IMG/VR virus record: IMGVR_UViG_3300028586_000750
Reading direction: 5' to 3' (one strand)
Source: a virus
DNA: 64,000 bases
Shown here in pieces: positions 24,490 to 39,612 of the stretch (positions are counted from its first letter, which is position 1; the number at the start of each line of letters is the position of its first letter). The notes beneath the pieces were generated by a model, which did not search any database, had not been told where the DNA came from, and was given only the letters and a program-made list of their open reading frames with translations. Both the position numbers and the translations under genes were made by a program.

Positions 24490-24624
24490 ATAGTGTGTGT
24501 TCCGCCTTACCTTTGTAAGACCTTACGGAAAGAAACACATTCCCGTTACCCAACATCATCACTTAATGTGTCCCTATGCTTTTATTTACATAAAAGAGGC
24601 AGATGAGCGGTCAGATAACCCTTG

Positions 24625-24699
24625 AGGGATCGACGAGATTCGAACTCGCGCCTTCAGTTTGGAAGACTGACATGCTATGACCGCTAACACTACGTTCCC
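24625..24699 (-). tRNA. tRNA-Gly(TCC)
   Basis: Loop CT-TCC-AA; U73; one acceptor mismatch. Confidence 0.85.
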
Positions 24700-24706
24700 A
24701 TACCAT

Positions 24707-24772
24707 ACAGACAAACAGGAATTTAACCTGTGACCTTGCTCACCACACGCTCTAACACTGAGCTATTATCTG
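24707..24772 (-). ncRNA. tRNA-like RNA with an 11-nt stub in place of the anticodon arm
   Basis: Acceptor CAGATAA/TTGTCTG, D arm GCTC/GAGC and T stem ACAGG/CCTGT all pair; no 17-nt anticodon arm. Confidence 0.7.
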
Positions 24773-24874
24773 TACTATGCAACGGCGTTCAAATCCGTTC
24801 CTCTTCGCTTGCTTGCGAATTGTGCTATCTATACACTATACAAGTTTGTTATAATTCACTATGTAATTATTTTG

Positions 24875-24948
24875 TTGCGGGAGAGGGATTTGAACCCTCG
24901 ACCTCTAGATTATGAGCCTAGCGAGCTACCGAACTGCTCCACCCCGCT
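24875..24948 (-). tRNA. Initiator-type tRNA-Met(CAT) with atypical anticodon stem
   Basis: A1:A72 mismatch; A11-U24; fMet-like D arm; stem CTAGG/TCTAG lacks the three G-C pairs. Confidence 0.88.
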
Positions 24949-25130
24949 TCGTTATGTTTCTATTCTAGCACACTTTATGTATTCATGTCAACTTATTTTG
25001 TCAACTTTATGTGCTTAAAGTTTTAGTGTGAGACTACCTCTTATTTCTCATTCTCACCCCAGCGCGTTATTAACTCACCTATCAAGTCTACCATCCTAAC
25101 CCCGAAAGGTTAGGACCGCTGGCCCTCGCG

Positions 25131-25199
25131 TTCCTTCACATAGAATTGAACTATGGACATTCCAAAAAGTTGGACGCTCTACCACTGAGCTATGAAGGA
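25131..25199 (-). ncRNA. tRNA-like RNA with 4-nt anticodon loop
   Basis: Perfect acceptor TCCTTCA/TGAAGGA, D and T arms; arm TCCAA-CTTT-TTGGA. Confidence 0.75.
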
Positions 25200-25377
25200 C
25201 TTACTAATGATCTCAACTTAGTTAGGTTGAAAGAGCAGTTCCGTAGGATACATCACTCCTGCAAACAAGGTAGCTAACCTGTAAGTTGCAGTCAACTAAT
25301 AACTAAACCATTCAAAGGAATGTGCCGTTCCTTAATGGCTCTCCAACTATAATGGCACACAGTTGAAGCATGAATCG

Positions 25378-25460
25378 TTTCCCTGGCAGGACTCGAACCT
25401 ACACTACACCGGCTATAAATAACTATGCCTAGCTGCCTTGACCAATTTGGCTACAGGGAA
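25378..25460 (-). ncRNA. tRNA-like RNA with irregular enlarged anticodon region
   Basis: Perfect acceptor TTCCCTG/CAGGGAA; T arm GTAGG-TTCGAGT-CCTGC; no canonical 7-nt loop. Confidence 0.65.
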
Positions 25461-25872
25461 ATAATAAGATTAACGACAGGGTTTAATACCTGCATTTTAA
25501 GGCCGTAGCCACTTACACAATGTAAGATGTTTTACTTAAACTACGTCAACCTAAATCGCTATTGTTTTATCTAAACTATATCTGTTAAAAATAGTTTTTG
25601 TGGCTGTAGGTCCGTTGATGAACCTGTCTCCATTTTTTGGAATAAACTTTCACGTTCAAACCAGAAAAGTTGTTTTCGTAAACTAACAGCCTTCCACCGA
25701 GATTTTGTGCTATTGTCCTCGGTTAATCCGCTCAGTGCAGCAATGGAGCTACCATATCTTTGCACTATTTATCTTGCGGTTTATCTTGATATTTCTTTAT
25801 AAGATACTTCTATACTATCACACGATTTTAAGTAAATCAATGTGAAAAGACATTTTCTTCAAAATATCTTTG

Positions 25873-25949
25873 CCCCCACCACAGGACTTGAACCTGTAAA
25901 AGAGGCGCTAAATCGCGGCCTCTTGTTTTGCCAGCTAAACTAGACGGGG
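25873..25949 (-). ncRNA. tRNA-like RNA, copy 1 (13-nt anticodon loop region)
   Basis: Acceptor CCCCGTC/GGTGGGG; D GTTT/AAAC; T ACAGG/CCTGT. Confidence 0.7.
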
Positions 25950-26060
25950 ATAAGAACTAATTGGTCTTTCACTTATTCTGAAAGCATATTTAGTTCTAAG
26001 TTGGTAACTCACTCGTTACCCTTTCAATACTTTAACTCTACACCATGCTACTGACAAAAG

Positions 26061-26402
26061 TCAAACTAGAACAAAGTTTGCTTTAAGAATTTCTAGAGCC
26101 TGCTTAGTATAGTTAAGATTTGACTTGATGCGAAGGTTAGTCTGGAAAGCAAAAAGCATTTCGTTAGAAGAAACTAGGGCCTCTTCCATACTCACACCTT
26201 CTGGGGTCATAGCAGAAAGCTGTTCCCACTGCTCAAAACGCAGTACCTCTAGCTGAATGATTTGCTCCTGAACAGCCTCTACAAGCTCAAGAACATCCTC
26301 AGTCTGAGAACCGGAAGCCTGAATTGCAACTGCCTTATCCTTAACCCTGCTGATGAAAGTATCAGTGTTTAGCTGGTTCAGCTTTGCTACTACGTTGGTC
26401 AT
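26061..26402 (-). CDS. Helical hypothetical protein, paralog of 26672..27001
   Basis: Shared QE.IIQLE.L...QWE.L.AM motif. Confidence 0.75.
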   Translation of the reverse strand: MTNVVAKLNQLNTDTFISRVKDKAVAIQASGSQTEDVLELVEAVQEQIIQLEVLRFEQWEQLSAMTPEGVSMEEALVSSNEMLFAFQTNLRIKSNLNYTKQALEILKANFVLV

Positions 26403-26488
26403 ATGCTTAGTCTTTCTCTCGATGAAACCGTTTAATTAACACATGCTCAATTTATGAACATCACATAAGACACTATTTTGTGTCTTTG

Positions 26489-26560
26489 CTCCCACCACAG
26501 GACTTGAACCTGTAAAAGAGACTACGCGGCCTCTTGTTTTGCCAGCTAAACTAGACGGGA
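26489..26560 (-). ncRNA. tRNA-like RNA, copy 2 (8-nt anticodon loop)
   Basis: Near-identical to copy 1 with compensatory 1:72 change (C-G to T-A) and a 5-nt shorter loop. Confidence 0.7.
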
Positions 26561-26671
26561 ATAAGAACTAATTGGTCTTTCACTTATTCTGAAAGCATAT
26601 TTAGTTCTAGGTTAGCAACTCACTCGTCACCCTTTCAATACTTTAACTCTACACCACGCCACTGACAAAAG

Positions 26672-27001
26672 TCAAATACCAAACTTAGTTTTTAGTTTAT
26701 TCATAATTTCTTGGTTAATATCAATATAAGCTTGGATTTGCATGTAACGCTGAGTGGGTAGCAAAAGCTCTAGCGAACCCATTGACCCATCTTCAACTGC
26801 GGGAGCCATGGCTTGAAGCTCTTCCCACTGGTCTAGAAGAAGTATCTCTAGTTGAATAATTTCTTCCTGCAACTGCATAACAATTGCAGAATACGCCTCA
26901 GGCCCTTTATTTGCGCTAGAAATCTCCACAAGAACGCTAGAGAGATTATTCATCACAAAATTATTAGATAGGTATTCAAGCCTTGTTGCTACATTAGTCA
27001 T
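26672..27001 (-). CDS. Helical hypothetical protein, paralog of 26061..26402
   Basis: MTNV start and shared central motif. Confidence 0.75.
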   Translation of the reverse strand: MTNVATRLEYLSNNFVMNNLSSVLVEISSANKGPEAYSAIVMQLQEEIIQLEILLLDQWEELQAMAPAVEDGSMGSLELLLPTQRYMQIQAYIDINQEIMNKLKTKFGI

Positions 27002-27022
27002 AGTTTTCTTTCTTTATTTCGG

Positions 27023-27556
27023 TTACTTGCTTAGGACAAGGGGTGTGTTGGTTTCGTTACGACGCTGAGCCTTAGCATCCTGGCGCTGTACCTTAACAAG
27101 GTCAATCGCAGCGTCAATGGATGTATCATCCTTAAGATGGTTTAGAGCATGACCGTTACCAAGCTTAAGCTTGGACTGCTCGGCAAGGAACGAACGAAGA
27201 GCATTCCCGTACTTGTGAGTGAAAGTAAACTCATCAGGTAACACGTAAGGCTGCATCTTCTCTGCAAGGAAGTTACGACGCTCAGCATCATTCTCGAGAG
27301 CGTTAAAAGTTACAGTGTCGCTCTTAATGGTCGCAAGGATGTGGTCGAACATGGAGCCGTGCTCTTTCCATCGAGCACGCTCAACAGCGGCACGCTCAGC
27401 CTTGTAAGCATACTCTGCCGCAGTAATCTTACGAGCCTTGTCTTGCTTGTAATCGTAAATAATATCCTTAATAACCATTTCCCAAATAAACCAACAAATG
27501 AGAGCTACATAGATAACGGGAAGCAGTAGCACTAGAAGAATAATAGGATTAAACAT
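27023..27556 (-). CDS. Membrane-anchored hypothetical protein
   Basis: N-terminal TM helix. Confidence 0.65.
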   Translation of the reverse strand: MFNPIILLVLLLPVIYVALICWFIWEMVIKDIIYDYKQDKARKITAAEYAYKAERAAVERARWKEHGSMFDHILATIKSDTVTFNALENDAERRNFLAEKMQPYVLPDEFTFTHKYGNALRSFLAEQSKLKLGNGHALNHLKDDTSIDAAIDLVKVQRQDAKAQRRNETNTPLVLSK

Positions 27557-27695
27557 AATTTTGACGGTACTTTCTCATAAAGTGTTCGTGGTTAAGCGGT
27601 ATAAAGTAATCGTAGCACGACATTTCCAGTAGCGCAACCAAGTGTAGATACAGCTTTTGTTTGCCTGATTACATATTTTCTGTTATAAATAAAAC

Positions 27696-28397
27696 ATGTC
27701 ATCTTTTCCCCAAAACTGCAAAGCGAAAGACCCTCTTAAATGCCGTCATCATTCACCTTTCAAAAATTCTTTACCACAAGCAGAGAAAACTGTTAAGACT
27801 AAGAAAGCACCTGAACTTGTTGTGTCTCGTGGCGTAAAAGTTATCAAAGGTAAATTCCAATCCGGAGACTTTGCCAAAGGTTTCAATACACCTGACAGCA
27901 TTAATGGTTATTACGACGGTTCATGGGAAGAAGTTGAAAAACTTGTTAAGAAGCACCGTAAAGACTTTGAACCTGGTACAGGTAGCGTTGATAACGACGT
28001 AATCCTTGTAAACGTACCCGCTAAAGGCTTCTATACAGCCATCACAGCGATTGACGATGACAATAAGCATCTTGTAGAAGAGAAAGATTATGTCCGCCGT
28101 GAAGGCGAAAAATCAGTTGGTATCAAAACAATTAAAGGAAAGAAAGAACCAGCTAAGTTTGTAAAAGTTGTTTGTTATCGTGCAGATGTTTTAGCACAAG
28201 ATGATGGTCGTACAACTGATGCTGAATGGGAGATTGTAGCAATTAATGCTCAATCTGATGAGTACACACCTATGCACCCAACTACAATGTTACGTAATGC
28301 TAATCATGATGAAGGTGGAACGTTAAGAGAATACTCAGATAAAGATTGGTCTGACGCTTATTCTTACTGGGACACGCATGCTTACCTTGAAGATTAA
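27696..28397 (+). CDS. Hypothetical protein with N-terminal CKAKDPLKCRHH motif
   Basis: 233-aa ORF; TATAAATA just upstream. Confidence 0.75.
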   Translation: MSSFPQNCKAKDPLKCRHHSPFKNSLPQAEKTVKTKKAPELVVSRGVKVIKGKFQSGDFAKGFNTPDSINGYYDGSWEEVEKLVKKHRKDFEPGTGSVDNDVILVNVPAKGFYTAITAIDDDNKHLVEEKDYVRREGEKSVGIKTIKGKKEPAKFVKVVCYRADVLAQDDGRTTDAEWEIVAINAQSDEYTPMHPTTMLRNANHDEGGTLREYSDKDWSDAYSYWDTHAYLED

Positions 28398-28445
28398 CTA
28401 GACATAACTAAGTAATGCCCCACCAAATATTTGGTGGGGCATTAC

Positions 28446-28826
28446 TTAGTTTGCAACCTGCGTATCAGTTGTCGTGTACTCTTCCATTTTTTGAGTAAGA
28501 CGAGAAAGTTCAGGTCCACTGTGAAAACTGTAAGCCTGGAAAATCCTGTCTAGGTACTCTTTATGCTTACTATCAAGTTTACTAGTGTCACCTACAGGCC
28601 ATGTAGTTAGAATATATGCGCCTTTGTGATAAGACATAAGTTCCGTATAGCGTGGACCTGTTTTGGTATGTGTGAAATATTCAGAGAATAGTGGCACATA
28701 AAGTGCACGCTGATAAAGAGTGTCAGCTAGGAAACAAAGTTTATGCAACTTCATTGAAGACATACCCTGGTCATTACGCTTATGCGAAATGAAATACTGA
28801 GCTACATCTTGGATTGATAACGTCAT
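28446..28826 (-). CDS. Panacea/SocA (DUF4065)-like antitoxin domain protein
   Basis: DVAQYF, MKLHKLCFLA, LFSE.F....GP, LSRLT match the family pattern. Confidence 0.75.
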   Translation of the reverse strand: MTLSIQDVAQYFISHKRNDQGMSSMKLHKLCFLADTLYQRALYVPLFSEYFTHTKTGPRYTELMSYHKGAYILTTWPVGDTSKLDSKHKEYLDRIFQAYSFHSGPELSRLTQKMEEYTTTDTQVAN

Positions 28827-28952
28827 TATCTGCTTTCTTTATTGACAAAATTATTTATGTATCAATTAAACCATTTTTGATAAAAGTTGTCAAGCTCAGT
28901 TTATTCCAAAACTAAAGGGACTGTCTACTTTAGGTAGACAATCCCTTTTAGC

Positions 28953-29114
28953 TTAATAACTTAATTGAACCGTGTTACTATCTGGTGCAATTTCTACAAC
29001 TTCAATATCATACCAAGCCACTGGATCATCTTGGTAATCATCATAAGTGTAATATGTTACAGGTAAATCTTTTGGTAACTTTTGTAGCTTTTCAATCAAT
29101 TCATTTACAGTCAT
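28953..29114 (-). CDS. 53-aa phage-type protein MTVNELIEKLQKLP (not in ORF track)
   Basis: GGAAAAG RBS; N-terminus similar to 30294..30446. Confidence 0.6.
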   Translation of the reverse strand: MTVNELIEKLQKLPKDLPVTYYTYDDYQDDPVAWYDIEVVEIAPDSNTVQLSY

Positions 29115-29240
29115 TTCTTTTCCTTATCTTGTTATAGTTTAATCTAACTCAATACTAGATAAAGTAAAGTTGATGCAAATAAGGTGGTAGATACTTTTTC
29201 AAATATCTACCACCTTACTAAACATAATCTGGGATTATGT

Positions 29241-29636
29241 TCAATCTTTCTTCTCGGTTACAAATACTTCGTATCCCCAACCGTAGTAGCCGTTGTCACT
29301 ACCAGAGCTACGAACAATTTCTGTTTTGATTCCTTCGGCATAAACAAACATGCGAAGCGTTGCTTCGTCAGGTCCGCTTGTGTTGAACTCGTCAACAACT
29401 TCTACGTTCGTGATGACCTGTGTAGGTGCATCGTTAGGTGCGTCAACTGACCAGTATCCGTTTGAACAACCGCCACATCCGTAAGACTCTGTTGCCTTAA
29501 GAATAGTACCGTTGTCAAGTACAAACTCAATTGAGTCTGTGTGGTATGGTGCTTTGATTTTGCGTGTTTCTACAATACGTCGTCCAACCATAATCTTGCG
29601 AAGACGGTCAGTGTCGTTGTATGTAATTTCATTCAT
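29241..29636 (-). CDS. Hypothetical phage-type protein
   Basis: GCGGCSNG and DNGYYGWGY motifs; AGGAG RBS. Confidence 0.7.
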   Translation of the reverse strand: MNEITYNDTDRLRKIMVGRRIVETRKIKAPYHTDSIEFVLDNGTILKATESYGCGGCSNGYWSVDAPNDAPTQVITNVEVVDEFNTSGPDEATLRMFVYAEGIKTEIVRSSGSDNGYYGWGYEVFVTEKKD

Positions 29637-29890
29637 GTTTTTCTCCTAATTGGTTTTGTGTTTTCTATATCCAAAATAGTTTTTACACAGTTCCAAAATA
29701 AGGAGGTTACTGAATTATTTAATTTTAAAGTTTGTTATGGATGCCGAAATCCGTTCCATACCCAGACCCGCTAGTTCTGTTTCTGGTTTAGCCTGCGCAG
29801 CCACTCAACACCAGCAGAGCTTTTACTTTTCACTGGAATTCATCCGAGAGGCGTAAAAGAACCTTTAACATAATTTTGTTAATGCCGCAG

Positions 29891-29972
29891 TGCTCCCGGT
29901 GGGACTTGAACCCACACTTCTTGCGAAACTTGATTTTAAGTCAAGCGTGTCTGCCAATTCCACCACAAGAGC
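29891..29972 (-). tRNA. tRNA-Leu(TAA)
   Basis: Class II cloverleaf; same sequence as 37579..37660. Confidence 0.92.
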
Positions 29973-30104
29973 ATATGGTACCGTTAGCTTCGCGCATGCA
30001 TTCGCTTAGCTGAAAAAGGGAAGTGAGCCACGGTTCCGTACCGCTCACCGACTGTAGTAGTCCCGTAGGACACTACCCAGCAATTATAGTCATTTTCATG
30101 ACCG

Positions 30105-30178
30105 TGGACCTGATGGGACTCGAACCCACAACATTCTGCGTGCAAGGCAGACGCTCTACCAATTGGAGCTACAAGCCC
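30105..30178 (-). tRNA. tRNA-Ala(TGC)
   Basis: G3-U70, A73, loop CT-TGC-AC. Confidence 0.92.
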
Positions 30179-30293
30179 GTATTATCTCTATTTAATTAGA
30201 TGAGGTTGGTCCGAAACTTGTTCTCCCGGCATCCCCTCGTTCTTTAATTATTCTAGCACATAATATCTGCATATACCAACTATTTTGTTACTT

Positions 30294-30446
30294 TTAGTCA
30301 GATAAATGAATTGAGTCGCGCATAGTTGTTTGAACATCAGCAACGCTAACCCACTGCGAAGGCCCCTCATCGTTTAACATAGGGACATAGACATCTGCGT
30401 TTTCTGGTAGCTCTTGAAGCTGTGCAATTAAATCTTTTACTCGCAT
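30294..30446 (-). CDS. 50-aa phage-type protein MRVKDLIAQLQELP (not in ORF track)
   Basis: RBS; N-terminus similar to 28953..29114. Confidence 0.55.
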   Translation of the reverse strand: MRVKDLIAQLQELPENADVYVPMLNDEGPSQWVSVADVQTTMRDSIHLSD

Positions 30447-30491
30447 TATTTATCCTTTTCTTTAGTATAACGGATTTAAATTTTTATTATC

Positions 30492-30962
30492 TTATTTATT
30501 TTTCCACGGCTTACCATTAGTTTGTTGGCTATGGCAATTTGGGCATAAAAATCTTAGATTGGGCGCACGATTATCATAGTTGCGCCCATTTATATGGTCA
30601 ATTTCAAGTACAATAGGTTTACCATTATATTCTGAACCAATGCCGCAACCCTCACAGATATGCAATCTTCCAATATCCAGTAGTGCTCGGCGCAAATGAA
30701 CAGTTTTAGTTTTCCATTTATTAGCCTCTTCGAGGACCAAAATATCTTCAGGTGCTAACCGTTTTGCAGCTTGTTTGCCCTTCATGTGACCTTGACCTGT
30801 AAAGTGCGAGATATCAATACCAGCATTTATAATACGTCGTTTGATATGACTTTGGCTACCACCAGCGAGTGGTATCCCAAGTTCTCTTAAAACAGCCGCA
30901 ATACTAAAACTATCTGCAACAGCTTTAGCAAGAGTTTCTGTAGTGTACTTGTATTTGGTCAC
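30492..30962 (-). CDS. HNH (homing) endonuclease
   Basis: CEGCG...LEIDHINGRNYDNRAPNLRFLCPNCH. Confidence 0.9.
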   Translation of the reverse strand: MTKYKYTTETLAKAVADSFSIAAVLRELGIPLAGGSQSHIKRRIINAGIDISHFTGQGHMKGKQAAKRLAPEDILVLEEANKWKTKTVHLRRALLDIGRLHICEGCGIGSEYNGKPIVLEIDHINGRNYDNRAPNLRFLCPNCHSQQTNGKPWKNK

Positions 30963-30986
30963 AGTCTAATTTTACCATAACATTAG

Positions 30987-31057
30987 GAACAGTAGTGGGA
31001 CTCGAACCCACATGCACCGCTAAAGTGCGGCGTAGTTTACCATTAGCTTATACTGTC
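30987..31057 (-). ncRNA. tRNA-like RNA with 6-nt anticodon loop
   Basis: Acceptor GACAGTA/TACTGTT; T arm GTGGG-TTCGAGT-CCCAC; stem GCCGC/GCGGT with loop ACTTTA. Confidence 0.65.
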
Positions 31058-31274
31058 GAGAACCAATTTCTTGGACCCCTTTTTCAGTTGAGGCAGGTTT
31101 TCGAAGCCCTGCATACCGCTCTCACGCGCATTATCCCATTTTATGCTATCTCAACAGCACCATTGCTTCTATCCGCTGCCCGTCCTGTCTCAGGTACCTT
31201 GATTGAGGACTTCTTGCTTCTTTTCACTTTAGGTGTTTTGTTAATGAAGGGTGTACATTTCCTTCATTAATAAA

Positions 31275-31303
31275 ACTATACTACTTTAAATCTACCTTGT
31301 CAA
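31275..31303 (-). promoter_or_regulatory. SigmaA/70-type promoter
   Basis: TTGACA-N17-TATAGT. Confidence 0.8.
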
Positions 31304-31311
31304 GTTCATTT

Positions 31312-31890
31312 TCAAACTTTATTTGAAGATTTTGCTGCTTCCCAGCCAGCTTTTGCGGCAACGGAACGAGGGTCAGTTAAAGCCTCAATTTGTTTCGCCA
31401 AAGCATTACCCAAAGCTTCCAATGGCTTTACGATTTCGGACCAAGGAGCGGCAACATGAATGTCTCGTGTAAGGATGCGTCCTGAATGACCGTCACCCCA
31501 AATGATAACAGGGGCAACCAAAGCGCCATTGATACCAAAGCTCAAATCATGAGTGTAACGGAAATCAAAAAGGTCTTCGTCATCATCAGTCATACGCTCT
31601 TTTAGAAGCTCTTCGTCAGTGAACGAGGTAATGTTAGCAGAGGAAAGATAAGCCCAGTTCTCATTCAACCATTCAAGCACTTCTACTAAAGTCCAGTCAA
31701 AGTCCCAAATTGTTTTTCCTGCAACACGAATGACAAGGTTTCCCCATGTACAGTTAGCTGCTGAGTCAGCAACAGACTGGTCTTTATCAAATGACAACGA
31801 CCAGTCAAATAAACCTTCATTGGTTGACATATAGTTTACTCCTAAGTAGATAATTCTATGGGTTAAAAAGTTTAGGCTTATGATGAACAC
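31312..31890 (-). CDS. Hypothetical protein
   Basis: ORF with probable start at MSTNEG. Confidence 0.65.
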   Translation of the reverse strand: MFIISLNFLTHRIIYLGVNYMSTNEGLFDWSLSFDKDQSVADSAANCTWGNLVIRVAGKTIWDFDWTLVEVLEWLNENWAYLSSANITSFTDEELLKERMTDDDEDLFDFRYTHDLSFGINGALVAPVIIWGDGHSGRILTRDIHVAAPWSEIVKPLEALGNALAKQIEALTDPRSVAAKAGWEAAKSSNKV

Positions 31891-31918
31891 TTTTTACATG
31901 TTCATCATAAGCCTATGT

Positions 31919-32006
31919 TGGCACTTTAGGTGGGATTTGAACCCACATGTCCTTTCGGACAAGGCACCTTTGAAAGCGCCTCTCGTCTGCATTCCGCCAC
32001 TAAAGT
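31919..32006 (-). tRNA. Atypical Leu-body tRNA with 10-nt anticodon loop (CTTTCAAAGG), G73 and encoded CCA
   Basis: Body closely resembles Leu(CAA) 21494..21576; perfect acceptor ACTTTAG/CTAAAGT. Confidence 0.7.
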
Positions 32007-32209
32007 ATGTTGGTAAGGGTCTTTAAGCAAGCCAATGTGGCCCACCTTTGTTATAACAATTACAAAACCTCGCAATGAGAATGTAACTGCTACAAATATA
32101 CTAGAAGTTTGCGCTTCTATATATTTCACCTTAGGCTATTTCTCCGCACCCATAGAGGGCCGGTGCATCATAACCAATTCCGATTACCGCAAAATAAACG
32201 AAACTTTTG

Positions 32210-32294
32210 TGCTCCCAAGGGGACTTGAACCCCTACGCCATTTCTGGCACTAGCTTCTTAGACTAGCGTGTCTGCCAAATTCCACCACAAGAGC
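32210..32294 (-). tRNA. tRNA-Leu(AAG)
   Basis: Class II cloverleaf; stem CTAGT/GCTAG; loop CT-AAG-AA. Confidence 0.88.
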
Positions 32295-32478
32295 ATGTGG
32301 CCACTACTTTCTTTCAACAGTGCGCACTGCCCAACCATCTTCTGCGTTTACTTGTAAGCAGTGGACCCCCAAGTAAACAGTGGTTGTATCAATTTGAAAA
32401 CTCGTTGGTAAGGATTTTACCCCTACGTTAGGAATCGAACCTACCCTGCAAGAACCTGCATTTTCAAATCTCAATAAT

Positions 32479-32574
32479 TTCGGTAAACCGGACTCGAACC
32501 GGCGCTCTCGCACCCCTAACTGGGTGGCGCATCAAAGCCTACTAACTGAGTTAGCACAGATGCTTTTTTACCAA
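32479..32574 (-). ncRNA. tRNA-like RNA with greatly enlarged D-arm region
   Basis: Acceptor TTGGTAA/TTACCGA; T arm GCCGG-TTCGAGT-CCGGT; internal helices GCATC/GATGC and CACCC/GGGTG. Confidence 0.5.
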
Positions 32575-32869
32575 AGCTTAGTATGTAAAGTTCAAAAGCA
32601 ACACATGCCTAGCTGTTACGCTACCAAGGGAATCGAACCCTTGTTTTGCTTTACTGGTCCTGTTAACCAATCAACTACTTTGCGAATGCAGGCGGTTATT
32701 AACCTCAGCAAACTCCCGAATAGGCGGGAATGGTTTCTTCTTGTCACTCACTAAAACGTAACAAGTTTACTTTTCAAACAGAACCGTAAGTTATCTCTAT
32801 TGTGTTGTTAATATCTATCATAGCACAGTATTTTTCTCTATGCAACTTCTTTTTTGAAGAAGTTTTAGT

Positions 32870-32989
32870 TGGAGCGGGTGGGATTTGAACCCACAAAATT
32901 TTACTTATCCGTGTAACGTCACACCATGTCTCACTTCATTAGCCCGTGAATAAATCGTGGCTTAAAGGAAAGACTTTGACTGCCGCCCC
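32870..32989 (-). ncRNA. 120-nt RNA with alanine-identity acceptor and T arm (tmRNA-TLD-like)
   Basis: GGGGCGG/CCGCTCC-A with G3-U70; T arm GTGGG-TTCAAAT-CCCAC; no D or anticodon cloverleaf. Confidence 0.65.
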
Positions 32990-33065
32990 ATATTTTCTTG
33001 TTACTAGAACAATACTACTCCAAATTCTTCTTGTCAAGTTCATTTACAAACTTTCTTAGAAAACT

Positions 33066-33278
33066 TTAACGCTGTTCCTTATTATGGATTTGAACTCGCT
33101 CTTCCTGGTTCTGAGCAGCAATACGAGCTTGTACACGATTAGAACTATGCTGACGCTTAATATTACTGCGCGCCCAAACACCTTTACCTCGTCCAAATCT
33201 TTTCTCTTCCTGGTGTTTATACCAAGTTTCACGAAGATATTCATGGCGTGGCGGAATACGACGATGCGTTCTACTCAT
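33066..33278 (-). CDS. Small basic protein (MSRT.R type)
   Basis: 70-aa Arg/Lys-rich ORF. Confidence 0.6.
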   Translation of the reverse strand: MSRTHRRIPPRHEYLRETWYKHQEEKRFGRGKGVWARSNIKRQHSSNRVQARIAAQNQEERVQIHNKEQR

Positions 33279-33521
33279 ATCCGTTCCTTAGCTGCTAATA
33301 CTTATTATCTAATATTGTAACATATTAAACATAAACTTAATCATACCTTTTTGGTATGCCTACAATCAGTATAAACAACCAGAAGGGTAAAAGTCAACTA
33401 GTAATTTATCTTAACAACTAAACTATTGATAACATTAGATAACAAAACTGCATGTAATATTGTACCCCATTTTTGGGTACATCTGTAAACACGATATATA
33501 CGCCAAAGAGGGTAATATATT

Positions 33522-34751
33522 ATGTTTTTAAACTTCCAACACAAACTGAAAGAAACACGAGAACAAGAATCTGGTTTTACATTAATTGAACTTATGATTG
33601 TTGTAGTCATTATTGGCATCCTAGCTGCTGTAGCAATTCCTGTTTTCGCTACACAACAAAAAGAAGGCATTAAAGGGACAGTTAAATCTGACGTTCGTAA
33701 CACAACCGGTAACGTTGTACAATTTTTAACCAAAACACCAACAGCATCAGATGTTTCCGGAACAAAGATTGTGTCTTCCGCTGACAATGTTATCGCTGTA
33801 AGTGGGGACTGGCAAGACTACACAGTGCGTGGTAAAAACGCCGCTGTTAATGACTGGTGTTGGGTTTACTCTTCCAAAACAGGTAAAGCAGTTGAAGGCA
33901 CCGGCGTCAACTGTGACTTCACAATGGCTCCTGTGACCACAACACCAGGAACAACTACACCTGGTACTGGTGGAACAATTATTCCTGGTACTGGCGCTGC
34001 TAGCCTTATTGCTACTGCTGCGTTAGAGCAACCTATCTTTGGTCGTGATTATGAAACAAAAGTTGTTGCTAGTGACCCTAACGTTACTTTCACCGCAGAT
34101 GGGTTACCTAATGGACTTGGAATGAACACAGGTGGCACCATTTCAGGTATCCCTACCACTAAAGGTGACTTCACAGTAACTGTAACTGCTGCTCTTGATA
34201 AAGCTAAAGAAACTAAAGATTTCAACTTGACTGTTGATACTATTGCTAACTTCACAGAAAGCTTTGATGATGCAGATTACGCTAAACGAGGTATTGGTGC
34301 ATCAGGACTTGTGTATGGAGGTAAAAGTTATAGTGGACCTTATGCGACACCTTCACCTGTTGGAACACCAATAGGTGGCGCTTCCAAAATATCAACATTC
34401 GGTGTAACTGGCGGAAACCTTGTATTAGCAGGCGATAAAGCAGTTAATTCAAACTCAACCATTAATGCTGTTGTTAACACTCTTAGCATTAATGGTTTAG
34501 AACCTAACGCAACATATGATTTCTCTATTTACATTGACAGTAATATGACAGGACGCTATTCAGGTAGTACAAACATTACCGAATTTAAGATTGCCGGTGC
34601 AGCAAAAACTTATACAGGTCCAGGTAATTACACTTGGTCAGGTAAAGCTGATACTAACGGTAAAGTAACAGTGGATATTAGAATGGCCTGTCAAAATTCT
34701 GTAACACCAATGGCTTTCAAAATGGATAACTTCTCTGGTTTAAAGAAGTAA
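33522..34751 (+). CDS. Type IV pilin-like protein with putative Ig domain and C-terminal beta domain
   Basis: G-FTLIELMIVVVIIGILAAVAIP prepilin motif; GLP.GL....GTISG.PT..G.FTVTVTA Ig motif. Confidence 0.88.
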   Translation: MFLNFQHKLKETREQESGFTLIELMIVVVIIGILAAVAIPVFATQQKEGIKGTVKSDVRNTTGNVVQFLTKTPTASDVSGTKIVSSADNVIAVSGDWQDYTVRGKNAAVNDWCWVYSSKTGKAVEGTGVNCDFTMAPVTTTPGTTTPGTGGTIIPGTGAASLIATAALEQPIFGRDYETKVVASDPNVTFTADGLPNGLGMNTGGTISGIPTTKGDFTVTVTAALDKAKETKDFNLTVDTIANFTESFDDADYAKRGIGASGLVYGGKSYSGPYATPSPVGTPIGGASKISTFGVTGGNLVLAGDKAVNSNSTINAVVNTLSINGLEPNATYDFSIYIDSNMTGRYSGSTNITEFKIAGAAKTYTGPGNYTWSGKADTNGKVTVDIRMACQNSVTPMAFKMDNFSGLKK

Positions 34752-34971
34752 GCTTTAAATAATTTCTTTCTCTAAAGCTCGTTCATCTTTACGGCATTCA
34801 TAATAATGCACAATACCTGGTGCAAGTAGAGTGCTAATAAGGGACAGCAGAGCTAATGTGGAAAAGGTTATCCACCATAAAAATATCATATACCATACCT
34901 ATCATCTAATATAAACGGAATGCCTCACCAAATTAATGGTGAGGCATTCCGTTTTGTTTTAAGATACAGAA

Positions 34972-35583
34972 CTACATGTTGCGAAGAGCAAATGTTAGTT
35001 CACCGTCATAACGTACACGACGGTTTAAGCCGTTCTTGTAGACAACTTCGGCGGTTAAACCAACTTTGTCATCGTTCTCTGAAAATGTGTCCACGAATTC
35101 AGACCAGCTATCATGGAAATAGTGTGTTACTGCAACAATTTCATACTTAGCTGGGTTTTCACGCTTATCATAGATAAGTTCGTGGTCTTGCCAACCGTAT
35201 GTGCTTTCACTGAGCGCTACAGGGTCACCATGCTTAGCTAAGAACTTAGCTACTCGGTGGTTGTAAACGTTCTGTGTTGTTTCTTCTACAGGTGGTAAAA
35301 GTAAGTTGGTAGCGCTGTAAATAACACTGTCTGCATCAAACCACTTTTGATGAATAACATCTACAGTGGAAAGTAAGAACTTGTCTGAAGATGATGAAAG
35401 CCAACCAATTCTAATGTCTTCTGCGCGCGCTACATCAAATAGGGTCATTTGACGGCTTGCTTTAGCTAAAGCGGCAATTGCTTCATCAACTACGTAAGCA
35501 TTGAAATTGTATAGTTCTGGTGCTTCTTTAAGCGTTAGATAGATTTCTTCTAACTGAGAAACATTTTCTTCATAGGTAGACAT
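34972..35583 (-). CDS. Hypothetical protein
   Basis: 203-aa ORF; C-terminus similar to 45587..46090 (FVDTF..DD.V...AEV / FDSF...DD.VSAQV). Confidence 0.65.
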   Translation of the reverse strand: MSTYEENVSQLEEIYLTLKEAPELYNFNAYVVDEAIAALAKASRQMTLFDVARAEDIRIGWLSSSSDKFLLSTVDVIHQKWFDADSVIYSATNLLLPPVEETTQNVYNHRVAKFLAKHGDPVALSESTYGWQDHELIYDKRENPAKYEIVAVTHYFHDSWSEFVDTFSENDDKVGLTAEVVYKNGLNRRVRYDGELTFALRNM

Positions 35584-35649
35584 GTCATCTTTCTTTTTAT
35601 ATAAGTTCAGGCCAACCTTAATTTTAAGGTTGGCCTGAACGAGGTTTAA

Positions 35650-35742
35650 TGCGACAAGCAGGAATCGAACCTGCGCGACCCCGTTTCATCCAGTAACTAG
35701 CTGGGTTACTCGGGGGTTGTGCTACCACTACACCATTGTCTT
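35650..35742 (-). ncRNA. tRNA-like RNA with 30-nt hairpin insert in the anticodon loop
   Basis: D arm GTGT-AGTGGTA-GCAC; stem ACCCC/GGGGT; insert AGTAAC/GTTACT; T arm GCAGG-TTCGATT-CCTGC. Confidence 0.65.
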
Positions 35743-36271
35743 TACGTCTGCCCTTGAAGTAGTTAATTAAAAGGGTTTCTGTAATTCTTTGCGTATCATC
35801 TTTGATACTAAAATTAAAGGACCAGATAGGTTTGCTCTAGCTATAAGTTCACCCGGTCCACAAGTTGCTCGGAAATTCGTGTGTTGGCCTTTTACACTAA
35901 GCCCCCATGTGTTGGGGACCACAGGATTCGAACCTGCATTTCAAACGGACTTCGCTCTGTCCTTAATGCTATCTCTAGCATTAACACCCACCTACTATTT
36001 CGCGCGAACTTAAGTAGGTGCAACTTGACATCTATGTAATTATTAATAATATAACAGAGGCGACAATGTATTGGTTGCTTAACTTGCGCCAGAGGCAGTT
36101 CCGACCTTATTCAGGTCCAAAGTATGTTGTTACCTTTTGATAACAGTGCATGTTATATTAAGTTTTCTAATGGTATAACAAGTCATTAAGTTGTAAGACA
36201 GAGGATGCCATTAGCAGTCCACCCCATAAGGGAAATAATGCCCCATTATACCAAATCTTTAATTGTGTTTG

Positions 36272-36345
36272 TAGGCCCCCAGAGACTCGAACTCTGCACC
36301 CACGGATTAAAAGTCCGTTGCTCTAACCTGATGAGCTAGAGGCCC
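36272..36345 (-). tRNA. tRNA-Lys(TTT)
   Basis: Cloverleaf; loop CT-TTT-AA. Confidence 0.92.
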
Positions 36346-36353
36346 ATATTTGT

Positions 36354-36477
36354 TTGAAGTTGCTGCTGGCTTTGCAGGACTCCAACCTGCGATATACGTT
36401 CTGTGCCCTAATAGCGTTGCGCCTAGGTCTGCTCCGTAATGTGTGGCTACCTCATCTAAAACCAGCAGCAACTTCAA
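36354..36477 (-). ncRNA. tRNA-shaped ncRNA with conserved 40-nt module, copy 1
   Basis: At least 16-bp terminal stem; T arm GCAGG-TTGGAGT-CCTGC; own TATAAT promoter. Confidence 0.7.
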
Positions 36478-36518
36478 CTCTTAAATTATTATACACTAAA
36501 AATTAGTTTTGGGTAAAA

Positions 36519-36629
36519 TTATTGAGAAACCTACAGGATTTGAACCTGTGAAAACGCGTTCTGTCCCCTAATAGCTTTCCGCCTAGGTCTGCTCCGCTGC
36601 GTGTGCCACTCGCCAAGACTTCTCAATAA
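36519..36629 (-). ncRNA. tRNA-shaped ncRNA with conserved 40-nt module, copy 2
   Basis: 14-bp terminal stem of different sequence; T arm ACAGG-TTCAAAT-CCTGT. Confidence 0.7.
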
Positions 36630-36816
36630 CTTTACACTATTTAATTTTTAGATCAAACAAGGTTTTCTTCCACTTGTTCTGGAAGCATTACTTGTTTAGA
36701 GGAAGTATCCGAAACTTGTTCTCCCGGCCTTGTTCTTCCTTATGTTTTAACTCTATCAGATACCTCTGACAAATGTCAAACCATTTTCAAAACTTTTTTA
36801 ATTTGTTTTGTTTCAG

Positions 36817-36941
36817 TACCAAAATGGGATTCGAACCCTGCATAACCGCTAAGTTATGCCTCCCTATATGAACTCATCTGATGTGCAAACTGTTCCACCT
36901 GGTAACCCCTGAGCTACAGGAACCCTCGGTATAGTTTTGGT
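36817..36941 (-). ncRNA. Possible tRNA-like RNA with large internal insertion
   Basis: ACCAAAA/TTTTGGT closing stem; GGG-TTCGAAT-CCC T loop; hairpin GCATAAC/GTTATGC. Confidence 0.4.
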
Positions 36942-37010
36942 TTCCACCGTATATTTTCACTTGCAGCAAGGTAATTAATCCCGCCCGTTAACTCCATACG
37001 GATTGTTGCG

Positions 37011-37092
37011 TGCTCCCGGTGGGACTTGAACCCACACTTCTTGCGAAACTTGATTTTGAGTCAAGCGTGTCTGCCAATTCCACCACAAGAGC
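37011..37092 (-). tRNA. tRNA-Leu(CAA)
   Basis: Same as the Leu(TAA) copies except position 34. Confidence 0.92.
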
Positions 37093-37159
37093 ATATTAAG
37101 AACGCCTTGACCTTTTGGCTTTATCACTCCGGTCGTTCTCTTAAAACTATATTAACACA

Positions 37160-37390
37160 TTACTCAGCTTCTCGCAAATTTTGTTGTTTAGCTCTTAACC
37201 ATTTCGTAAAATCCATTCGTAATGGCTCCAAAAGAGAAACAACCCTAAAAGTAAAGTTTTCATCTTCTGGAAGCGCGTCAATTGCCTCGTTTGCTTCTGC
37301 CTCAGAGGCAAAAGGACCAAATACTGACGTGTAATCAATATCACCATCAGATTTAATAACTACAAATGGATTTACTTCAAGATTACTCAT
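37160..37390 (-). CDS. Small protein, paralog of 37395..37550
   Basis: Start MSNLEV; SDGDIDYTSVFGPFA motif. Confidence 0.65.
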   Translation of the reverse strand: MSNLEVNPFVVIKSDGDIDYTSVFGPFASEAEANEAIDALPEDENFTFRVVSLLEPLRMDFTKWLRAKQQNLREAE

Positions 37391-37394
37391 TGCC

Positions 37395-37550
37395 TTAGAC
37401 AATCTTTTCAGGATTTTGAACTGGTTCTACACGATAAGCATAATCGTCATTATCGTCAGGTGTTACTTTTTGCGCTTCTGCTGCTGTAGCAAAAGGACCA
37501 AATACTGACGTGTAATCAATATCACCATCAGATTGAACAATTACGAACAT
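37395..37550 (-). CDS. 51-aa protein (not in ORF track)
   Basis: AGGAG RBS; MFVIVQSDGDIDYTSVFGPFATAAEA... Confidence 0.7.
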   Translation of the reverse strand: MFVIVQSDGDIDYTSVFGPFATAAEAQKVTPDDNDDYAYRVEPVQNPEKIV

Positions 37551-37578
37551 ATTTTCTCCTGTTTAGTTTAAACTTGCG

Positions 37579-37660
37579 TGCTCCCGGTGGGACTTGAACC
37601 CACACTTCTTGCGAAACTTGATTTTAAGTCAAGCGTGTCTGCCAATTCCACCACAAGAGC
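37579..37660 (-). tRNA. tRNA-Leu(TAA)
   Basis: Class II cloverleaf. Confidence 0.92.
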
Positions 37661-37736
37661 ATATTAAGAACGCCTTGACCTTTTGGCTTTATCACTCCGG
37701 TCGTCCTCTTGAAACTATACTAGCATATATTATGAG

Positions 37737-38198
37737 TTAACGGAACATGGGAAGAACTTCAGTGTCAATTACATTCCATGCCTTAACGCCACCATTGTAG
37801 GTGGTGTGCTCAACACAAACAGGGTCACCCCAGTTGTCGCACTCCATTTCGGGGCAGTTCTCAACATAGTTGGGAGACTCACCAATGAAGTACAGGAACT
37901 TGTCTAGCGTAAAAATCTCATCCACAGCCTTAGTGAAACGTGAGAAGTTATGGCTACCATAGCTTTCCCCAGCAACTACGTCACCGTTGGGAAGCTTTAC
38001 GACACTGAGAACCATATCGCTCTCAGCGCTTACGTTAACGTCAGCCCATGAAACAACTCCTTCAATGGGCCACTCATCTACCTCAATTGTGACGGAACAG
38101 TTAGTCCAGTCACGCAGCAGGTCATTAATCTTATCCGTGTTCACGGTTTCCTCTTTCTCTCTTGCACCAGTATATACAGTTACTTTGATGAATGTCAA
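37737..38198 (-). CDS. Hypothetical protein
   Basis: 153-aa ORF. Confidence 0.6.
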   Translation of the reverse strand: MTFIKVTVYTGAREKEETVNTDKINDLLRDWTNCSVTIEVDEWPIEGVVSWADVNVSAESDMVLSVVKLPNGDVVAGESYGSHNFSRFTKAVDEIFTLDKFLYFIGESPNYVENCPEMECDNWGDPVCVEHTTYNGGVKAWNVIDTEVLPMFR

Positions 38199-38330
38199 CA
38201 GAAAAACAAAAAGGCGAAGACTAATAATTTAGTCTTCGCCTTTTTGGTAGATGCATCTTAATCTATTTCTAGATGAAAAGAACAATTATTCAACAGATAA
38301 TGGAACACAACCTTTTAGAACTTGGAATTT

Positions 38331-38402
38331 CTAAAACCCAGAGAGTCGAACTCTGACATTTAACGTTTTTACGATGGACGCTCTGTATCTAGCTATTGTT
38401 CA
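38331..38402 (-). pseudogene. Decayed tRNA remnant
   Basis: T arm CAGAG-TTCGACT-CTCTG and D-like arm; acceptor does not pair. Confidence 0.4.
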
Positions 38403-38547
38403 ACCGCGAGCGCCCTTATTAGCTTTTCAAGGCTAACAAGTTTGGTGGAGCAACTCGCATATTTATACTGTAACACACTCTTCTGACATTTGCAACAGCA
38501 TAGTTAAAGCCCCACCAGTTAATTCTGGTGGGGCTTTAACTATGCTG

Positions 38548-39612
38548 TTAATCTCCGGTATCAATTGAGCCTGTGATACGGAAGTTATCCGATTTAAACT
38601 GTTTGCCTTTCTTCTTACTAAGAATGACATTATCAAACCCACGTGTATAGCTGCGGTAATTTGCATAATGAGTGAAGTGGTAAACAGTTTTACCGCTTTC
38701 TGTAAGAAGTTTCCCTGGCTGGCTACCGTAACTAGTACCAGTTGGTGGCGTATAAGCAACAATTTTTTCTACACCGTTGTCTGTTTCAACCCAAGCGTTA
38801 TTAATTTTACCTGAGCTATCAACGCTTAGTTGTTCCTTTTTAACACGTGTTGTTTCAACTTCGGTACCAGTGGTAGGAATTTTTGCTTGATGCCATTTAG
38901 TTGCACGGTCTAGACGCTCTTGCGCTTTAGTAACTGTGTCATCTGCATAATGGGCTTCTGCACGAGATAAACCACGTTCTGCATAAACCTTATTTGTAAT
39001 TCTATCTTTCTCTGCAATAAGACCTTGGTATTGTGCGTTTGCTTTCAAACCATGTTTGTACTCTTGTAAAGCTTCTTGATATTCTGTTGCTGTTGCAGCT
39101 TTTTCAATTGCACGTTCAGTTTTTGCTTTGATATCAGGGTCTAGTTTGTCTCTTGAACGTTTGATTGGTGCTAAGTTATTTGGGTCATTACGTTCAATAT
39201 CTTCTACCATCCATCCTGCTCGCGCTGGGTGAACACCTTCTGCGATGTAAAGTTTTTTCAGTTCAGCTAAAACTTCTGCTTTGCTTTCTTCACCAGCCGC
39301 AATACTGTTTTGTAGTTCAAAGCGTCTTGGGATATTGTTTTCCTCTATATATGCAAGGGTACGTTGACCAATTTCTCTTTGAGCTTTTTCTTGGGCATCT
39401 TTCTTTGCTAATGCTTGCGCCATATTTTCACGCGCATCTTGCAAATATTTTGGGATGCTTCTGTTGTCTACAGGTACACGTGGGTCATTAGCTTGTGCTT
39501 TTTGATCGTATTCTGTTTGGGAAATGTGTCCTGCTGCGCCATAGCGGCAAGCACGTTTGTTTGCGTCACAAGGTGCGTATTTCTTGTTCTTATTAATGTG
39601 ATACTTAGCCAT
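38548..39612 (-). CDS. Hypothetical protein with N-terminal YHIN..CDANKRACRYG..H motif
   Basis: 354-aa ORF. Confidence 0.75.
   Translation of the reverse strand: MAKYHINKNKKYAPCDANKRACRYGAAGHISQTEYDQKAQANDPRVPVDNRSIPKYLQDARENMAQALAKKDAQEKAQREIGQRTLAYIEENNIPRRFELQNSIAAGEESKAEVLAELKKLYIAEGVHPARAGWMVEDIERNDPNNLAPIKRSRDKLDPDIKAKTERAIEKAATATEYQEALQEYKHGLKANAQYQGLIAEKDRITNKVYAERGLSRAEAHYADDTVTKAQERLDRATKWHQAKIPTTGTEVETTRVKKEQLSVDSSGKINNAWVETDNGVEKIVAYTPPTGTSYGSQPGKLLTESGKTVYHFTHYANYRSYTRGFDNVILSKKKGKQFKSDNFRITGSIDTGD

Follow-up and report, generated by a model that had tools for sequence, protein, structure and literature searches.

Non-decoding tRNA-shaped RNAs among the tRNA genes of a putative phage, and signs of selection on their structure

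Introduction

For fifty years there has been debate about the reason why phages have tRNA genes. Where gene finders report “undetermined” or “pseudo” tRNAs in such regions of phages, these calls are often set aside as broken genes. IMG/VR virus record IMGVR_UViG_3300028586_000750, of which a stretch of 64,000 nt with ~40% G+C was analysed (“the window”), contains a tRNA island that raises the question of whether such calls can also mark RNAs with a role outside translation. Between 24.7 and 38.4 kb, on the minus strand throughout, nine ordinary tRNA genes are interleaved with RNA genes of two other kinds. A preliminary description had regarded the odd elements as one fleet of tRNA-shaped RNAs that keep the acceptor and T arms, have a disrupted anticodon arm, and form a non-decoding mimic system. 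The analyses reported here suggest that most of them are likely to be functional, non-decoding RNAs under selection.

Results

Non-decoding RNAs of three architectures

ARAGORN predicted 15 genes in the window, which are located on the minus strand from 16.9 to 37.7 kb. Twelve are ordinary tRNAs, and the other three, at 26488, 30986, and 31919, have odd loops and were reported as “???”. It assigned an amino acid to none of the odd elements and gave no call for x2 (Table 1); undetermined calls had been anticipated in the preliminary description. With the Rfam tRNA model (RF00005), eight of the elements listed there exceeded the gathering score of 29 bits, with values from 32.4 to 59.2 bits, and the remaining eight fell below it. 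The sites at 32479, 32870, 35913, 36354, 36519, 36817, and 38331 had no match to the tRNA model. Instead of a single fleet, the set comprises three architectures: cloverleaves, RNAs composed of a closing stem, an insert, and a T arm (stem-insert-T-arm RNAs), and one permuted body that resembles Y RNAs.

None of the eight cloverleaf RNAs presents a triplet in a 7-nt loop on a 5-bp stem; the loop has 4 nt in one element, 8 nt in three, 13 nt in one, and 30 nt in one, and the arm of the remaining two is a short remnant (x1) or has been replaced (x3). The acceptor stems are fully paired (7/7) in seven of the eight elements, the exception being x10 (35650) with 5/7, and the T arms are fully paired (5/5) in all eight. 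U8, A14, the GG of the D loop, and the core of the T loop are kept, except in x7 and x1. The geometry shows that the cloverleaf elements are unable to act as normal triplet decoders. The earlier statement that only one arm is damaged has to be narrowed, because the acceptor and T arms are mostly intact, but the D stem of x7 is also broken.

The eight bodies differ in their deviations. The acceptor, D, and T helices of x1 are complete (7/7, 4/4, and 5/5, respectively), and its elbow has U19 and A56 where the sister element x2 has G19 and C56, so that the pair 19:56 is preserved. The anticodon and variable regions of x3 form a 7-bp hairpin with a 4-nt loop. ARAGORN reads a four-base anticodon in both x6, which has a D stem of 3/4, and x7. 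The latter is the only element with an encoded CCA, has lost one elbow G, and is 91% identical over 35 nt of its 3′ part to the tRNA-Leu(CAA) at 21490.

A strict T-arm motif was found 28 times on the minus strand and not once on the plus strand, compared with 1.3 occurrences expected for both strands combined. Two of the T-arm modules, at 32626–32642 and 17442–17458, go beyond the earlier list. At least eight RNAs share a common plan, i.e. a closing stem of 6–15 bp, an insert, and a canonical T arm that abuts the 3′ strand of the stem. x9 has neither a D nor an anticodon arm; its 7-bp acceptor (G3:U70, A73) and its T arm enclose an 80-nt insert. The two elements designated twins have a module with 86% identity over 49 nt in common, and their closing stems are unrelated in sequence and both paired. 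A 21-nt segment is shared identically between 30210–30230, upstream of tRNA-Ala, and 36708–36728 in the leader of twin B.

Table 1. Positions of the RNA elements, cassettes, and associated genes in the window (fold z-scores relative to shuffled sequences where so stated)
Feature	Position	Strand	Description
Operon tRNA-Met, x1, tRNA-Gly, tRNA-Leu(UAA)	24407–24991	-	promoter 24962–24991
x1	24707–24772	-	44.7 bits (Rfam tRNA); anticodon arm is an 11-nt remnant
x2	25131–25199	-	59.2 bits (Rfam); near-perfect tRNA body; 5 bp and 4-nt U-rich anticodon loop
x3	25378–25460	-	43.1 bits (Rfam); class-II-like body
x4 cassette	25873–26065	-	promoter, ~85-nt structured leader, tRNA-like RNA 25873–25949 (39.0 bits, Rfam; 13-nt loop)
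x5 cassette	26489–26676	-	paralogue of x4; tRNA-like RNA 26489–26560 (37.2 bits, Rfam; 8-nt loop; ARAGORN “???”)
HNH homing-type endonuclease gene	30492–30962	-	Pfam HNH; directly downstream of x6
x6 cassette	30987–31303	-	promoter 31275–31303, ~210-nt leader, tRNA-like RNA 30987–31057 (35.5 bits, Rfam; 8-nt loop)
x7	31919–32006	-	Leu-derived; 8-nt loop, long variable arm, G73, encoded CCA; 32.4 bits (Rfam, at 31922); ARAGORN “???”
x8	32479–32574	-	96 nt; 7-bp closing stem, two hairpins, T arm; fold z-score -2.2
145-nt RNA	32619–32763	-	5–8 bp closing stem; T arm 32626–32642 near the 3′ end
x9	32867–33037	-	promoter 33009–33037 (10/12), RNA 32871–32989 (119 nt), 3′ trailer 32867–32870; fold z-score -2.5
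x10	35650–35742	-	33.9 bits (Rfam); 30-nt anticodon loop holding a 6-bp hairpin
217-nt structured RNA	35813–36029	-	predicted promoter/start to terminator-like hairpin with U-rich tail; z-score -3.3 versus shuffles
Twin A	36359–36478	-	15-bp closing stem, ~40-nt conserved module, T arm; own promoter 36488–36517; z-score -2.7
Twin B	36519–36630	-	14-bp closing stem, module of twin A, T arm; promoter 36750–36779
Stem-insert-T-arm RNA	36817–36930	-	8-bp hairpin ahead of a weak T arm
Weakest member	38331–38427	-	6-bp closing stem, hairpin, T arm; fold z-score -1.5

Substitutions in a relative spare the helices

Relatives of the window were obtained through exact-protein look-ups, and all of them are 91–99% identical to it. 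Four contigs of one relative (L001, L002, L003, and L010; 91–97% identity) jointly cover every element, and six contigs belong to 99% strains. The first relative is 4–9% diverged and has kept every element together with the matching odd loop.

For comparison, we determined the densities of substitutions relative to this genome. The values were 0.63% for ordinary tRNAs, 1.9% for x1–x7 (the seven cloverleaf mimics compared at that stage), ~2% for conserved leaders, 3.6% for other intergenic DNA, and 5.5% for coding DNA. Substitution rates alone were rejected as evidence of constraint, e.g. the region of 24.2–25.4 kb is nearly identical to the relative, spacers included. Because regional heterogeneity makes density a weak argument, the positions of the substitutions were tested instead. 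Sixteen elements (1,635 nt) were folded from the window sequence alone, the substitutions of the relative were then placed on the folds, and random placement with equal transition bias served as the chance expectation.

The 16 elements contain 39 substitutions, which comprise 15 at unpaired positions, 14 that keep a pair, 4 that break a pair, and three double compensatory pairs. The four helix breaks compare with 11.0 expected (P = 0.006), and the three double changes that keep pairing compare with 0.22 expected (P = 0.001), which supports the claim that tRNA-shaped RNAs without decoding capacity are under selection. One of the three doubles is the acceptor pair 5:78 of x3; the other two are neighbouring pairs in the hairpin 35963–35984 of the 217-nt RNA, which differ on both sides in L003. 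When the identical procedure was applied to 66 coding windows as a control, 87 pair-keeping and 94 pair-breaking changes were found, as well as 2 double-keeping and 6 double-breaking ones. Pseudogenes should have helices and loops that are hit alike, a pattern that was not seen in the 4–9% diverged relative.

The individual changes illustrate this result. In x3, pair 5:78 is C-G in the window and U-A in L002, with both sides changed, pair 6:77 has changed from U-A to U-G, and a G-U pair of the hairpin has become G-C. The first T-stem pair of x5 is A-U in the window and G-U in L002, the single change in the x6 body (L001) is located in the loop, and both changes in x10 (L003) are inside the insert. 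x1 and x2 are identical in L002, and x7 is identical in L001, L004, and L005. Among the stem-insert-T-arm RNAs, none of the four substitutions between the 145-nt RNA and L001 breaks a helix (0/4), the G3:U70 of x9 is the same in L003, twin A has one change in L010, and twin B none. The hairpin of the RNA at 36817–36930, the 5′ part of which is less conserved, shows three changes in L010 and the 99% strains (U-G to U-A, U-A to U-G, and A-U to G-U) that all keep the pairing. Three substitutions separate 38331–38427 from L010, and one of them breaks a helix.

A second line of evidence comes from the paralogues x4 and x5. The two cassettes are ~93% identical, compared with 31% identity of the paralogous ORFs just upstream. 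Pair 1:72 is C-G in x4 and U-A in x5; this compensatory change, reported earlier, is real and is kept in the relative. The loops of 13 and 8 nt begin with matching bases, and each is kept in the relative. The module shared by twins A and B within closing stems of dissimilar sequence is further paralogue support.

Neutral relics as an alternative

The preliminary description had argued that neutral decay would not spare the acceptor and T arms. This argument is weakened by ascertainment, because only copies in which these two arms are intact can be recognized; selection is backed instead by the substitution test, the x4/x5 paralogues, and the RNA contigs (see below). The same ascertainment favours the alternative that the elements are neutral relics, i.e. 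recently inactivated tRNA copies that recombination, rapid duplication, and the traffic of homing endonucleases have left behind. The elements have three times the substitution rate of the ordinary tRNAs and grade from 59 bits to copies that are beyond recognition.

Turnover of the array is also visible. The tRNA-Leu(CAA) at 37010–37092, one of six Leu tRNA genes in the island, matches two tRNA-Leu(UAA) genes (37578–37660 and 29890–29972), which are identical to each other, in every base but the first of the anticodon and looks like the result of a recent anticodon switch after duplication. The HNH gene occupies the place at which L001 (1829–1915) and L005 have a tRNA-Leu(UAG), suggesting homing-endonuclease traffic within the island. 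Variants without certain elements exist as well. A straw-metagenome variant (run X6, depth ~12.6) is rearranged by the joints 31021-21579, 26606-21493, and 26488-24953 into the compact order x6 5′ half, Leu(CAA), x5, and Met, with one breakpoint in the x6 loop. A fast-moving accessory island of this kind suits conflict-related cargo and also yields relics.

Four observations disagree with neutral decay. Helix breaks are rarer and double compensatory changes more frequent than expected by chance, in contrast to the coding controls, and the elbow pair 19:56 covaries in x1. The shared 5′ part of the x4 and x5 loops shows that the aberration is older than a duplication with flanking ORFs that are now only 31% identical. 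In addition, there are strong promoters of their own and cover by RNA contigs. We therefore regard it as rather improbable that the set consists of relics.

Promoters and RNA contigs

Consensus-like promoters on the minus strand precede the Met-x1-Gly-Leu operon, x4, x5, x6 (score 11/12), x9, and both twins. The ordinary tRNAs of the island likewise have a promoter and a hairpin leader. The leaders of tRNA-Leu(CAA), x4, and x5 contain, after the promoter, a short hairpin of the type GGUAAC...GUUACC (21585–21600, 25992–26010, and 26603–26621, respectively), and in the x5 copy the pairing is kept via G-U changes.

Parts of the tRNA island are present in six leaf-litter metatranscriptomes. Contigs of three RNA libraries were placed on 19 kb of the window (20500–39500). 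Their depth was 12.6 and 14.2 at 24304–24937 and 30.2 at 30644–31277, it was 5–8 over 28.7–30.6 kb, 31.9–32.5 kb, and 35.7–36.3 kb, and it fell to 0–1.5 over the ORF-only stretches 26840–28107 and 33180–35715. These depths, with peaks on RNA genes and values near zero on ORF-only stretches, argue that the contigs stem from RNA and not from carried-over DNA. They cover x1, x3, the 5′ half of x6, x7, x8, and the 217-nt RNA; x8 is spanned by contigs from three runs. Leu, Gly, and x1 are spanned together by contigs of 24053–24848 in two runs.

The cassette structure of x4, x5, and x6, i.e. promoter, conserved structured leader, and tRNA-like body, could also mean that the bodies are punctuation marks, which serve as handles for RNases P and Z or as 3′ caps, and that the leaders or neighbouring RNAs are the functional part. 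The leaders are conserved to the level of the bodies (~2%), the most abundant RNA contig consists mainly of the x6 leader, and RNases P and Z need just the acceptor/T-arm helix and the elbow, which would leave the anticodon arm free to vary. That abundant contig, however, is uncut across the predicted RNase P site 31057/31058, and x1 is flanked by ordinary tRNAs that already offer cleavage sites. The leader marks no special unit, since ordinary tRNAs have a like promoter and hairpin leader, and in the twins (36359–36630) the most conserved part is the insert at the anticodon position and not the body. Pure punctuation thus fits poorly between ordinary tRNAs and at the twins, and we assign it a small probability for the set as a whole, although it may apply to a subset, as may the recoding and charging considered in the Discussion.

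The x6 leader contains a degenerate tRNA-like module at ~31094–31158, with a closing stem of 8 bp (7/8 paired) and a T-like arm whose loop has 10 nt. The 5′ strand of this module is able to pair alternatively with the 5′ strand of the x6 acceptor.

A circularly permuted tRNA body in the 217-nt RNA

The third architecture is represented by the 217-nt RNA. The order in 35875–35946 is T arm, acceptor closed by a 7-nt loop, and D arm, i.e. that of a circularly permuted tRNA body. When the halves were un-permuted, with the downstream half first and a bridging loop of seven bases, ARAGORN accepted the sequence as a cloverleaf with a 7-bp acceptor, a 4-bp D stem, a 5-bp stem at the anticodon position, and a normal T arm.

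In Cyanidioschyzon merolae and some other algae and archaea, permuted tRNA genes give rise to decoding tRNAs via a splicing endonuclease. They share with 35875–35946 the location of the 3′ half upstream of the 5′ half, and the self-closing contigs described below hint at a circular form here as well. In contrast, no anticodon loop would form from the RNA described here, which excludes a decoding product, and its context is of the bacterial type.

The domain order is exactly that of YrlA-type Y RNAs (RF02553; Chen et al. 2014, PMC4201824), which are likewise non-decoding, also found in phages, and equipped with another helix at the anticodon position. Y RNAs of bacteria and phages have tRNA-like domains that are modified and cut by tRNA enzymes (PMC4201824). 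The Rfam YrlA model aligned over its full length at 35851–35952, with the T arm followed by the closed acceptor and then the D arm; the score was only 13.7 bits compared with a threshold of 69, and 35875–35946 is the only element with the permuted YrlA-type order. A higher-scoring YrlA match at 36312–36399 (25.9 bits, threshold 69) was rejected as a chance match that bridges the T arm of one element and the D arm of tRNA-Lys. The island differs from the YrlA system in the low score and in having no Ro60/TROVE gene that could be found in the window. In addition, most of its elements are unpermuted and have open acceptor ends, and it contains many diverse copies rather than one or two beside rsr.

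Self-closing RNA contigs

Two RNA contigs close on themselves. The deepest contig of the region (86.5, run X17) corresponds to 31026–31238 and is self-closing via one extra base (214 nt). The contig 35813–36029 (217 nt), which equals the whole predicted transcript, is self-closing in two runs, with depths of 13.9 in X15 and 3.3 in X17; a rare artefact would not have survived assembly as a joint at so low a mean depth as 3.3. No self-closing joint is present in the DNA run, in which the depth is flat at both loci, and independent DNA assemblies are collinear with the window, i.e. four over 35813–36029, two of which also cover 31026–31238.

The self-closing contigs point to circular RNAs or, alternatively, to a tandem duplication in the source population that was collapsed in assembly. 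Position 31026 is the sole site that is polymorphic between strains, and this polymorphism could itself end a contig. Within the Lys-like loop that takes the anticodon position in x6, position 31026 lies one base 5′ of the wobble equivalent, a point at which some anticodon nucleases cleave. The 213-nt x6 RNA (31026–31238) is no more stable than shuffled sequences (z-score -0.6). We see a modest chance at best that at least two RNAs, the 217-nt permuted RNA and the x6 leader with the 5′ half (31026–31238), are covalently circular in vivo. If so, a giant phage would make DNA-encoded circular tRNA-mimic RNAs via cleavage and sealing by an RNA ligase, and the circles, a type of RNA new to bacterial viruses, would link the mimics directly to the conflict of tRNA breakage and repair.

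Discussion

The explanation towards which we lean is that the elements are tRNA-derived small RNAs that act outside translation and are kept by selection. They appear to be transcribed in the style of tRNAs, some within a tRNA operon and others from a sigma-70-type promoter of their own that is followed by a short structured leader. The acceptor/T-arm helix is retained and, in most, the D/T-loop elbow as well. These parts are recognized by RNase P, RNase Z and 3′ trimming, the CCA-adding enzyme, and T/D-loop modification enzymes, and the anticodon arm is needed solely for decoding and by enzymes that read the anticodon. Because the parts that are read by tRNA-maturing enzymes are retained, end maturation and stability are to be expected, and the RNAs would accumulate as stable, L-shaped molecules. 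The anticodon arm is shortened, enlarged, or swapped for other hairpins or domains. At the anticodon position, the sequence is variable on a constant body (x4 compared with x5) or conserved on a variable body (twins), which fits a chassis that carries different heads.

The mature RNAs may serve as mimics or chassis carriers that engage proteins recognizing the tRNA shape. Candidate partners are host tRNA-directed defence or modification enzymes and, for the permuted RNA, a Ro60-type protein. That the mechanism is protein binding or decoy action on the tRNA chassis is a tentative proposal. With their U-rich, Lys-like loop remnants, x2 and x6 are the best decoy candidates. For elements without an anticodon arm, a decoy for anticodon nucleases fits poorly, because these enzymes read or cut that arm; the PARIS, retron, and Schlafen tRNases, for instance, cut within tRNA positions 29–41 (PMC13056530). 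Armless mimics would not be cleaved by known defence tRNases, and binding would be equally doubtful.

Several points weigh against selection on tRNA mimics. The divergence is small, so that the evidence per element is thin, with zero substitutions in x1, x2, x7, and twin B. Some members are of low quality, i.e. x7 with its broken D stem, x10 with its incomplete acceptor, and the weak 38331, and the set grades to barely recognizable copies, as a birth-and-death process would give. The high identity of x4 and x5 could be due to gene conversion instead of long-term constraint, although gene conversion cannot account for the compensatory change. Some elements are dispensable: the straw variant lacks 32477–32712 (joint 32476-32713), and thus x8, and in one RNA-run contig the twins are replaced by another sequence upstream of tRNA-Lys. 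The RNA contigs show neither RNA ends nor levels. No TROVE/Ro60 domain was found among 40 window ORFs scanned against Pfam.

Two further alternatives would have the RNAs charged. Bacterial frameshift-suppressor tRNAs read four bases or shift by +1, and x5, x6, and x7, with 8-nt loops on 5-bp stems, could be recoding tRNAs of this type. The four-base anticodons read by ARAGORN in x6 and x7 would be compatible with this, as would the perfect acceptor, long variable arm, and unique CCA of x7, and all three elements are unchanged or nearly so in the relatives. We nevertheless consider recoding very improbable: it accounts for 3 of ~16 elements, the D stem and one elbow G are defective in x7, the one change in x6 hits the loop, which may also close as 6 bp and 6 nt, and x4, the sister of x5, has a 13-nt loop on a matching body. 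About as improbable are aminoacyl carriers outside the ribosome. Some of the RNAs would then be charged independently of the anticodon and would either pass amino acids on to enzymes that build cell walls, lipids, or peptides or else titrate a synthetase. The G3:U70 and A73 of x9 on a 7-bp acceptor with a T arm would suit charging by AlaRS, for example, a TyrRS is encoded 20 kb away, and non-translational tRNAs are known, reportedly including tRNA-Other of Bacillus cereus. However, a recognizable identity set is present in x9 only, genes of the Fem type, the MprF type, and for cyclodipeptide synthases were not found among the window ORFs scanned, and the closed-acceptor and long-stem members are not chargeable.

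An antisense role was rejected. Complements of ten insert or loop sequences in the window were limited to 9–12-nt matches at about chance level, including a 9-nt match of the x6 loop to the 3′ end of x7. An 8-nt complement of x6 in its own leader is uncompensated in the relative.

Small RNAs with tRNA features are known from other systems. Phage T4 “species 1 and 2” (rnaC and rnaD) are small stable RNAs that are transcribed and processed together with the phage tRNAs and are partly tRNA-like. They are two RNAs, whereas the island has ~sixteen, with several architectures and, in many cases, their own promoters. x9 resembles tmRNA in its alanine-type acceptor (G3:U70 and A73), its T arm, and the insert that replaces the D and anticodon arms, but it has just 119 nt and lacks pseudoknots or a convincing tag frame. 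As a mini-tmRNA it was rejected, because ARAGORN gave no tmRNA call and the Rfam scores were 19.6 and 11.2 bits compared with a threshold of 47, with only the T arm matched.

Non-decoding tRNA-shaped modules that recruit RNases P and Z are also known, i.e. mascRNA and the TMER vtRNAs of murine gammaherpesvirus, the latter being viral and multi-copy. The t-elements of plant mitochondria are tRNA-like processing elements (PMC1920247). All of these are eukaryotic or organellar, and in contrast to them the abundant RNA contig of the island spans the predicted x6 cleavage site. A further parallel is provided by phage tRNA clusters whose altered anticodon loops allow them to escape the tRNA nucleases of the host (van den Berg et al. 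2023, PMC10264068). They likewise form a phage island in which change is centred on the anticodon arm, the target of the nucleases, but they keep a 7-nt loop and decode, which the elements described here cannot do. None of the descriptions of Y RNAs, tmRNA, T4 stable RNAs, or tRNA-like processing modules covers an island of ~sixteen members with three architectures.

In this one island, non-decoding look-alikes are about as numerous as real tRNAs. If they are maintained as proposed, the tRNA body would be a reusable chassis for viral small RNAs, for which Y RNAs and tmRNA are precedents at a lesser scale and diversity. The elements would also be concrete candidates for mimics that act against tRNA-cutting defences (PrrC, PARIS, retron-linked PtuAB, and bacterial Schlafens), for the recruitment of tRNA-processing enzymes, or for carrying other RNA domains on a tRNA body.

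Source and genomic context

Near-identical DNA is present in leaf-litter metagenomes, and straw metagenomes contain a ~99% variant. A megablast search with 14.5 kb against 50,697 phage records gave 53 nt of tRNA as the only match. Protein-seeded and DNA-pattern scans of IMG/VR and a DNA-pattern scan of metagenome contigs revealed no relatives. The genes of the window encode TyrRS, thymidine kinase, adenylate kinase, a deaminase, and the HNH endonuclease, and the other ORFs are mostly of unknown function. PHROGs detected no phage hallmark on ten window ORFs, and no capsid or terminase gene was seen among the window ORFs. Together with the tRNA island, the five named genes suggest that the replicon is phage-like. 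In several assemblies, proteins of the window also occur on contigs with lengths between 787,832 and 791,407 bases. The largest phage genome has been given as 735 kb (PMC7162821); if the replicon is a phage, ~0.79 Mb would exceed this value.

Two genes near the RNA elements may be mentioned. A 409-aa type IV pilin-like gene at 33522–34751 on the plus strand is absent from the 94% relative; in L003 (1291–1328), window position 34754 is joined almost directly to 33376, and 33377–34753 is missing. Just outside the tRNA island, 19413–19979 encodes a protein with a cytidine/dCMP-deaminase fold that also matches the MafB19-like deaminase family.

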